NCBI GenBank assembly: GCA_964016885.1
Contig: OZ024743.1
Location: 264,058,001-264,122,000, forward strand
Direction of reading: 5' to 3'
Origin: Eledone cirrhosa
Taxonomy: Eukaryota
Length of the DNA: 64,000 nt
Position 1 is the stretch's first letter. The number at the start of each line of letters is the position of its first letter. The notes under the pieces are model-generated. The model did not search any database and was not told the origin of the DNA. It saw only the letters and a list, made by a program, of their open reading frames with translations. The translations under genes and the position numbers were made by a program. Below are positions 34,338 through 34,748 of the stretch, one piece after another.

Positions 34338-34748
34338 AAACAATTAAGTTATAAGCATATAACGATATGTGCTTTTACGGTTCTCCAGAAACGCCGGTAG
34401 ATAGGTAAATATTGCTGATGAGTTGTAACAACAACGAAACTAGTTCAATATTCCTTGTCTGGCTTTCTGGAGAATAGAGGAAAGGCGTTTCCTCGAAAAC
34501 CAGTATGACTCTAAAAACCGGTTTGTCTGTGTGTTTACATACAGAATAGCTGGGTTGCTCACAGTAAAGTAACCAGTGAAAGACTTGGTACATCTACATA
34601 TGTATACGTGTGTGTATTCATATGCATACTAGTATTTCAGTATGCATATGTAGATGTACATTTTTAACTTAATTGTTTAAGCGTCAGTCATACAAAAGTG
34701 AGTTACAAACGAAGCGAAATTTAATTTCGTTTCGTTATTTGTTTTTAT
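34338..34748 (+). mobile_element. Solo partial copy of the 467-bp family with a 14-nt inverted 5' piece
   Basis: 34353-34748 is a slightly diverged unit with an intact HHR at 34408-34452. 34338-34351 is the reverse complement of TAACTTAATTGTTT. Confidence 0.9.

Follow-up and report, generated by a model that had tools for sequence, protein, structure and literature searches.

How a short non-coding repeat that carries a hammerhead ribozyme motif reaches new genomic sites, and whose enzyme puts it there, is the question raised by a locus in Eledone cirrhosa. The window, by which we mean the whole 64,000-nt stretch of DNA analysed, contains two head-to-head insertions into (TA)n, a solo copy (34338-34748) and an array (29623-32424), both made of one 467-nt hammerhead-bearing unit. 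A first-pass annotation had seen in their ends the insertion signature of Penelope-like elements (PLEs). The evidence set out below indicates that units of this family and of a 474-nt sister family were likely inserted in trans by a PLE endonuclease and RT.

In the solo copy, the type I hammerhead motif spans 34397-34468 on the plus strand and comprises stem I (AATATTG/CAATATT, extended past a bulge), the CTGATGA core at 34415, stem II (GTTG/CAAC), GAAA, and a palindromic CTAG stem III, with cleavage predicted at GUU^C after 34445. The motif matches RF02275 (Rfam HH9) over its full length at 38.6 bits (E 5.6e-7), below the gathering score of 52, as does each unit of the array (full length, E 1.1e-6, also below gathering); at the gathering score, Rfam returned no matches. 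With 31097 taken as unit position 1, the predicted cut follows position 165 of the 467-nt unit, 229-303 nt upstream of the outer ends of the insertions. The cleavage triplet is GUU, a weak one for hammerheads, in the copies of the window, and GUC in six contigs of the public run X1 and in the contig of run X4. The unit (GC 35%) folds far more strongly than its shuffles (z -10.3), and neither a profile built from 120 PLE proteins nor tblastn found a coding remnant in the 467- or 474-nt unit. The repeats have the form that defines non-LTR retrozymes: a tandem unit a few hundred bp in length, with a type I hammerhead motif in every unit, no LTR and, judged by the lack of PLE-profile and tblastn matches, no coding capacity. 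The RT plus GIY-YIG ORF of an autonomous PLE is missing from them. Judged from sequence, both the 467-nt unit and the 474-nt sister repeat are non-LTR retrozymes, tandemly repeated and non-coding, with a ribozyme that is a predicted hammerhead motif, and they probably represent a new family of this kind that carries the PLE insertion signature.

The solo copy is flanked by (TA)n at both ends (34071-34337 on the left and 34749-35120 on the right). Its inverted piece is 14 nt long (34338-34351, minus strand; unit 385-398) and is the reverse complement of TAACTTAATTGTTT, or 15 nt long if the shared A at 34337 is counted; this is the proximal end, where unit position 399 is shared with the TA tract. 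After one extra T (34352), the direct arm (34353-34748, plus strand; unit 73-468) runs to a distal end at TTTTTAT, terminating in GTTATTTGTTTTTAT, and a 3′ hairpin on the same strand (34708-34736) stops 12 nt before that end. Both ends, each passing into (TA)n, are as they were first read from the locus, and the 14-mer of the inverted piece was met by chance in 13 of 200,000 resampled units. In the array, the inverted arm (29623-30597, minus strand; 975 nt, 2.1 units) has its outer end at the distal site, unit 468, and its inner end at unit 428, while the direct arm (30598-32424, plus strand; 1827 nt, 3.9 units) has its inner end at unit 436, within the hairpin, and its outer end at the proximal site, unit 394. 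The solo copy's two ends had been said to recur here about 70 nt apart: the distal one is identical, and the proximal one, TAATT at unit 394, is 5 nt shorter than unit 399 of the solo copy, which places the outer ends 69-74 nt apart (468 versus 394/399). These ends are swapped between the arms: in the solo copy the inverted arm bears the proximal end and the direct arm the distal one, and in the array it is the reverse.

The inner ends of the 467-nt copies vary (unit 73, 385, 428, and 436), and the inner junctions lie at self-complementary spots, namely the 428/436 hairpin in the array, TTATAA in the solo copy, and AATATT in an X1 contig. TSDs are not readable inside (TA)n. The five whole units of the array show one substitution between them in total; between the solo copy and the array there are 18 substitutions and 2 gaps over 395 nt, which makes the solo copy a separate insertion. 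Both insertions have the features of PLE integration: an inverted, 5′-truncated copy adjoining a direct copy, two alternative 3′ ends (unit 394/399 and 468, bounding the tail) found on either arm, and an AT-rich (TA)n target without poly(A) at the outer ends. As the first-pass annotation had it, none of the outer ends falls at the hammerhead cleavage site.

The ends recur outside the window. One 467-nt unit, phased so that it contains both ends as well as the cut site, was compared with 4 of 24 listed public runs. In run X1, 1051 contigs match the unit, 50 of them only partly, and the best of the loose ends are supported by 11 contigs behind 31097 (unit 468) and by 4 behind 31028 (unit 399); each leads into TA, with consensus flanks unlike those of the window's loci. 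The best 6 of 34 loose-end sites were inspected, and the other 28 were assumed to hold one contig each (total 49) for the null. Under a uniform null, 11 contigs at any one site arose in none of 200,000 trials, and 4 contigs at a named site have p of at most 1e-4; three more of the best 6 of 34 sites read as sequence variants of the unit. Termini elsewhere, which the first-pass annotation had proposed to tabulate, thus peak in X1, among the best 6 of 34 sites, at 468 and 399 and not at the cleavage site, and they carry no poly(A). X1 counts are contigs rather than loci, and X1 possibly comes from the window's own sample, so these are further loci in the same species and not a second species. 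Summed X1 contig depth falls from 689,284 to 241,052 past the distal end, but swings as much elsewhere and is therefore not used as evidence. Six X1 contigs and one 497-nt contig of X4 (depth 11) show the unit joined to itself at 467 nt, which tandem DNA fits equally, and the share of contigs running on into unlike sequence is zero. The sixth of the inspected sites is a single X1 contig with an inverted junction at 31263, in the AATATT palindrome; this junction is offset by 1 nt from where the 5′ end of a ribozyme-cleaved monomer is predicted, which hints that linear RNA left by cleavage may sometimes serve as template.

The two contigs of X4 are probably trace DNA and were not counted as a second species, and the raw Hi-C runs X21 and X22, with no matching reads, were counted as no test. 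Words of the 467-nt unit also occur in runs X4-X20, which are labelled as many organisms and one wastewater metagenome; two raw runs for organism D contain none of these words. The simplest explanation is trace DNA or contamination. A unit-specific pattern gave no matches in metagenome contigs, and the at least 120 stretches that matched a hammerhead-core pattern in viral contigs were taken as chance.

Coding PLEs in the window serve as internal controls. Remnant A (1998-4986, plus strand) holds a broken RT plus endonuclease region and an inverted 5′ piece (1998-2206); remnant B (5732-7378, plus strand) keeps the C-terminal part of the endonuclease, with its inverted arm at the proximal and its direct arm at the distal end; and in remnant C (22605-26628, plus strand), the inverted arm has its proximal end at AATTTAT^C and the direct arm its distal end about 130 nt further. 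Their coding parts (A, 2205-4195; B, 5827-6117; C, 23853-24981) match a profile of Hydra-type proteins, and Pfam gave nothing useful on six PLE fragments. The Hydra clade is defined by DKT, RWR, and CxCx5C, and almost all of its families are described as inserting into (TA)n (Craig et al. 2021, PMC8557442). Remnant A, which represents the candidate helper clade, has all three motifs and remnant C has CxCx5C, and both belong to Hydra; B is assigned by its profile match only. In A, B, C, and several small palindromes, one arm ends proximally and the other about 60-170 nt further. The closest control for the 467-nt solo copy is a solo copy of family B (28180-28371, plus strand) with swapped ends, in which a 26-nt inverted piece comes from the distal end and the direct arm stops at the proximal end. 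This inverted piece is absent from the direct arm, and two separate starts are therefore needed, as in the 467-nt solo copy. Because the coding Hydra-clade remnants nearby show the same two-end geometry as the units, trans-mobilisation by a PLE is likely, and the inserting PLE was, on balance, probably one of the Hydra clade.

Several other repeats surround these elements. More small head-to-head (TA)n insertions lie at 21752-22030, 22454-22596, 32669-33010, 33460-33835, 36041-37186, and 5064-5212, mostly with hammerhead-like cores, bringing the density to about 10 PLE-type insertions per 64 kb. A hammerhead-like motif in remnant C (26300-26445) combines a stem II about 105 nt long with a stem III that is the palindrome CGATCG. 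Two diverged elements on the minus strand (43065-50400 and 14000-17060) are presumably LINE-like, given what we take to be endonuclease and RT motifs, and there are further RT fragments. A SINE-like dispersed repeat of about 190 nt is present in more than 10 copies at 72-97% identity (11566-11764, 17537-17747, 18901-19738, 37318-37470, 51893-52854, 54536-54643, 58033-58239, and 59480-59681 among them).

The Hydra-type ends share a tail motif, GCTC-N(5-15)-TTGAGCACT. From 78 Hydra loci taken from metagenomes (L121-L198), 55 carry a hammerhead core, and in 32 of these 55 the motif lies within 230 nt after the core, against a null with mean 1.1 and maximum 5; the pattern was picked after a few cases had been viewed. 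In the window it occurs at 21981(+), 5121(-), 33762(+), 39566(+), 7314(+), and 26570(+). Where the ends are visible, the proximal one lies about 4-14 nt upstream of the motif and the distal one 30-50 nt downstream. The motif is likely a hairpin and, judged from these positions, a candidate signal for RT binding or start; we found no description of it in the main texts searched. With a matrix of Hydra tails, the tails of window elements take ranks 1, 2, 5, 15, and 21 among 127,964 positions; the tail of remnant A itself has rank 64 and that of one palindrome rank 2117.

The 474-nt sister family forms an array of 5.5 units (39599-42216, plus strand; hammerhead core at 39962) whose outer end is CAATTTAT^(CGT), passing into (TA)n. 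It is homologous to the 467-nt family, with 107 substitutions in 420 aligned nt, and in a consensus fold of the two, 27 of 101 pairs have both partners changed, a weak signal from only two sequences. The stop at TTTAT^CGT that had been reported for this array holds, at 42216, and its column is homologous to the 467-nt distal end. Two 474-like pieces, one 5′-truncated (32437-32616, minus strand) and one of 45 nt (29524-29568, plus strand) identical to the terminus of the first, end at the homologous site (CACTTAT), so that the distal end is the same alignment column in the 467-nt unit, the 474-nt array, and both pieces. No proximal end was seen in the 474-nt family and no inverted adjoining copy at its array. 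The identical ends of the two pieces face inward, tail-to-tail, and flank the 467-nt array; they stem either from two insertions in the same TA tract or from an earlier (TA)n-centred palindrome that the array later hit.

A head-to-head fragment, the short arm (39221-39598), adjoins the 474-nt array directly at 39599, 20 nt past its tail motif (39566), with 1 nt of overlap and no TA between. The first-pass annotation had treated it with the 467/474 units and had both its ends, 39221 and 39543, stop at TTTAT. The left arm does so (TTTAT^CGT), but the right arm runs 55 nt further, to 39598. The fragment has its own hammerhead core, and its tail ranks 5 of 127,964 in the Hydra tail matrix; it is therefore a Hydra-type terminal fragment and not a unit of either family. 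Between its two arms there are 5 substitutions and 2 gaps over 152 nt, and since they diverge more than the 474-nt units, which differ by at most 1 in 462 nt, it looks older than the array. An origin of short arm and array as a one-event chimera was downgraded on the same contrast, and from these divergences it appears more likely that the 474-nt array reached the short arm later.

The units were also compared with the ends of the neighbouring PLEs. The tail motif is absent from the 467-nt unit, whose best position ranks 529 of 127,964, and weak in the 474-nt unit (rank 136), and 18 local alignments of the units to nine window PLE end regions gave no significant extended homology; the best was reached in 7 of 2000 shuffles, which is not significant after 18 tests. 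At the cut points, matches of 7-8 nt do link the units to Hydra ends: TTTAT^CGT in the short arm, AATTTAT^C in remnant C, and AATT^GTT in remnant B. The 8-nt match was equalled at none of the pooled control positions (a low-resolution pool of 107), and the 7-nt match has p 0.004, both comparisons being post hoc. Target, co-location, and end contexts favour Hydra as the helper clade, if only slightly, and Naiad and Neptune PLEs are described as likewise favouring microsatellites. The reading of the insertion signature as evidence for trans-mobilisation thus gains from the geometry, the ends away from the cut, the absence of poly(A), the recurrence in X1, and the likeness of the Hydra-clade neighbours; among the PLEs of the window, no intact one sharing the units' 3′ hairpin was found.

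These observations suggest a course of insertion. The PLE endonuclease would cut both strands of (TA)n, and each 3′ end would prime cDNA at an internal point of the repeat RNA, unit 468 for one and unit 394-399 for the other, probably aided by 1-3 nt of pairing; two truncated cDNAs would then be joined at their inner ends, often at self-complementary spots. We infer the RNA intermediate and the internal priming of the 467/474 units from these ends. All long arms cross the ribozyme cut site, and the template would therefore have been an uncut multimer or a circle; the near-identical array units fit both equally, and a circular RNA template is a distinct possibility, somewhat short of probable. 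Simple fold-back was rejected for the solo copy, where the inverted piece starts at 385 and the direct arm at 73, and for the family B solo copy, where the 26-nt inverted piece lies outside the direct arm; at the inner junction of the array (428/436, in the hairpin), fold-back self-priming is a possible fit as well.

The claim that priming uses short AT microhomology fared less evenly than the internal position of the start sites, which the two fixed ends support. At 8 of 11 window ends, hand-picked for visible continuation, the overlap with (TA)n is at least 2 nt (p 0.0008 versus blunt random joins); for the four retrozyme ends alone p = 0.035, and the short-arm end has an overlap of 0. At the metagenome Hydra loci, an overlap of 2 nt or more with (TA)n is present at 8 of 9 usable ends, after 14 of 23 rows (L186, L196) were dropped as microsatellite self-matches. 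Microhomology is suggested by these counts and runs contrary to the only in vitro study of a PLE, in which PAc reportedly initiates where there is no homology with the cut DNA (PMC11167929). We consider short-primer pairing at (TA)n rather likely, and the overlap could instead reflect U/A-rich start sites. More tentatively, and with some doubt, one may picture a retrozyme circle with two Hydra-RT start sites of its own, which mimic Hydra ends (TTTAT^C, AATT^GTT) without the Hydra terminal repeat; both cut ends of (TA)n would prime on it with 2-3-nt pairing, roll round, and write arrays in one event, making the retrozyme a structure-based parasite of PLEs and not a deletion derivative.

Four other origins were weighed against trans-insertion by a PLE. 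The 467-nt unit could belong to an autonomous PLE that escaped notice, being its 3′ terminal repeat in truncated form and moving in cis, and not be a free-standing retrozyme; truncated PLE ends are common in the window, and an ORF could lie beyond one of the 28 X1 loose-end sites that follow the best 6 of 34. This is made unlikely by the head-to-tail multimers, which repeat the 467- or 474-nt unit exactly for up to 5.5 units, by the 467-nt closure seen in two runs with no share running on into unlike sequence, and by the lack of both coding remnant and Hydra tail motif. A non-autonomous Helentron- or Helitron-like element, spreading by rolling circle with TTTA/TC as its 3′-5′ tandem junction and the hairpin as its 3′ palindrome, would suit the hairpin 12 nt from the end, the microsatellite-like tract inside, the tandem copies, and the T-rich ends, which resemble HINE/DINE-1. 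However, no window copy starts at TCGT, the best 6 of 34 X1 sites include no loose end 'before' 31097 against 11 contigs 'behind' it, and the inner ends vary (73, 385, 428, 436) where a fixed 5′ end and subterminal inverted repeats would be expected; head-to-head arms, a second fixed end, and the hammerhead would be left unexplained, and we regard such an element as very improbable.

LINE mobilisation with twin priming would likewise give head-to-head inversions, with the second end variable and the distal end on one arm. Here the second end is fixed, the distal end sits on either arm, the solo inverted piece falls within the stretch spanned by the direct arm, and the marks of LINEs and SINEs, poly(A) or one fixed 3′ terminus of the direct arm, are lacking; this route appears highly improbable, even with LINE-like RT remnants in the window and LINEs named as possible retrozyme helpers (Cervera and de la Pena, PMC7229834). 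Spread of a satellite at the DNA level, with ends made by slippage or repair at AT-rich spots beside (TA)n, would fit the AT-rich ends, the 1-3 nt overlaps, and the near-identical array units, but is scarcely credible when a TA run of at least 3 ends at about 7.5% of unit positions, yet two sites dominate, and coding PLEs show identical geometry.

Trans-insertion by a PLE agrees with what has been proposed for retrozymes elsewhere. In the available texts, PLEs are proposed as retrozyme helpers by Cervera and de la Pena 2020 (PMC7229834), and Li, Clavereau and Pollet 2026 (10.64898/2026.07.22.740005) argue for PLE helpers from co-occurrence and the phylogeny of pLTRs. The metazoan non-LTR retrozymes of these accounts resemble the units in having a non-coding tandem unit, a type I hammerhead motif per copy, a strong fold, solo copies as well as multimers, and co-occurring PLEs; 8 of 9 Xenopus retrozymes are reported without cleavage in vitro (10.64898/2026.07.22.740005). 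Unlike the published retrozymes, the units have resolved junctions, with arms placed head-to-head in (TA)n and two internal ends that are fixed; no significant homology to the local pLTRs was seen. The words 'tail' and 'junction' do not occur in the available text of Li et al. 2026, and in the main texts that we searched, which mostly exclude subscription journals, we found no published account of retrozyme insertion junctions with a PLE tail.

With endonuclease-bearing (EN+) PLEs of the Hydra clade, as described in PMC8557442 and PMC3846280, the units share the inverted 5′-truncated copy, a tail on either arm, the (TA)n target, a hammerhead upstream of the ends, and palindromes at inverted junctions, which Arkhipova et al. 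2013 (PMC3846280) interpreted as self-priming. An adjoining inverted 5′ copy with a 30-40-bp tail at either end is the published PLE signature; the tail of the units is longer (69-74 nt versus 30-40 nt), as are the window PLE tails (about 60-170 nt). Unlike Hydra-clade PLEs, the units have no ORF, form exact 467-nt multimers, end 229-303 nt past the cut, and lack the Hydra tail motif. Trans-mobilisation between pLTRs in Adineta offers a precedent (PMC3846280). Among non-autonomous PLEs, MRC1 and Chlamys-N4 (PMC8557442, PMC9977147) are likewise non-coding and multicopy, head-to-tail in microsatellites, and are moved by a PLE partner. These Chlamys elements resemble the partner's 3′ end and are described without canonical hammerheads, whereas the units carry a hammerhead motif and have no such likeness to the window PLEs.

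The closest biochemical parallel is PAc, a Poseidon PLE of the green anole (Frangieh et al. 2024, PMC11167929). In vitro, AT-rich DNA is cut on both strands and mainly uncut RNA is used, from two internal starts whose spacing equals the tail. The units would share with it two internal starts downstream of the hammerhead, an AT-rich target, priming from both strands, and uncut RNA. In PAc, synthesis begins within the element's own ORF, in an AC-rich stem-loop that has no homology to the target (PMC11167929), whereas the starts of the units would be U-rich sites with a 1-3 nt overlap on a non-coding RNA.

The expected link between retrozymes and PLEs is confirmed by these insertions, and none is overturned. 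The helper had previously been assigned from shared ribozyme type, co-occurrence, and phylogeny, whereas junctions record the enzyme that acted. With two base-exact start sites on a 467-nt RNA and a candidate clade, trans-mobilisation and the choice between circle and multimer become testable by the existing in vitro assay for PLEs.
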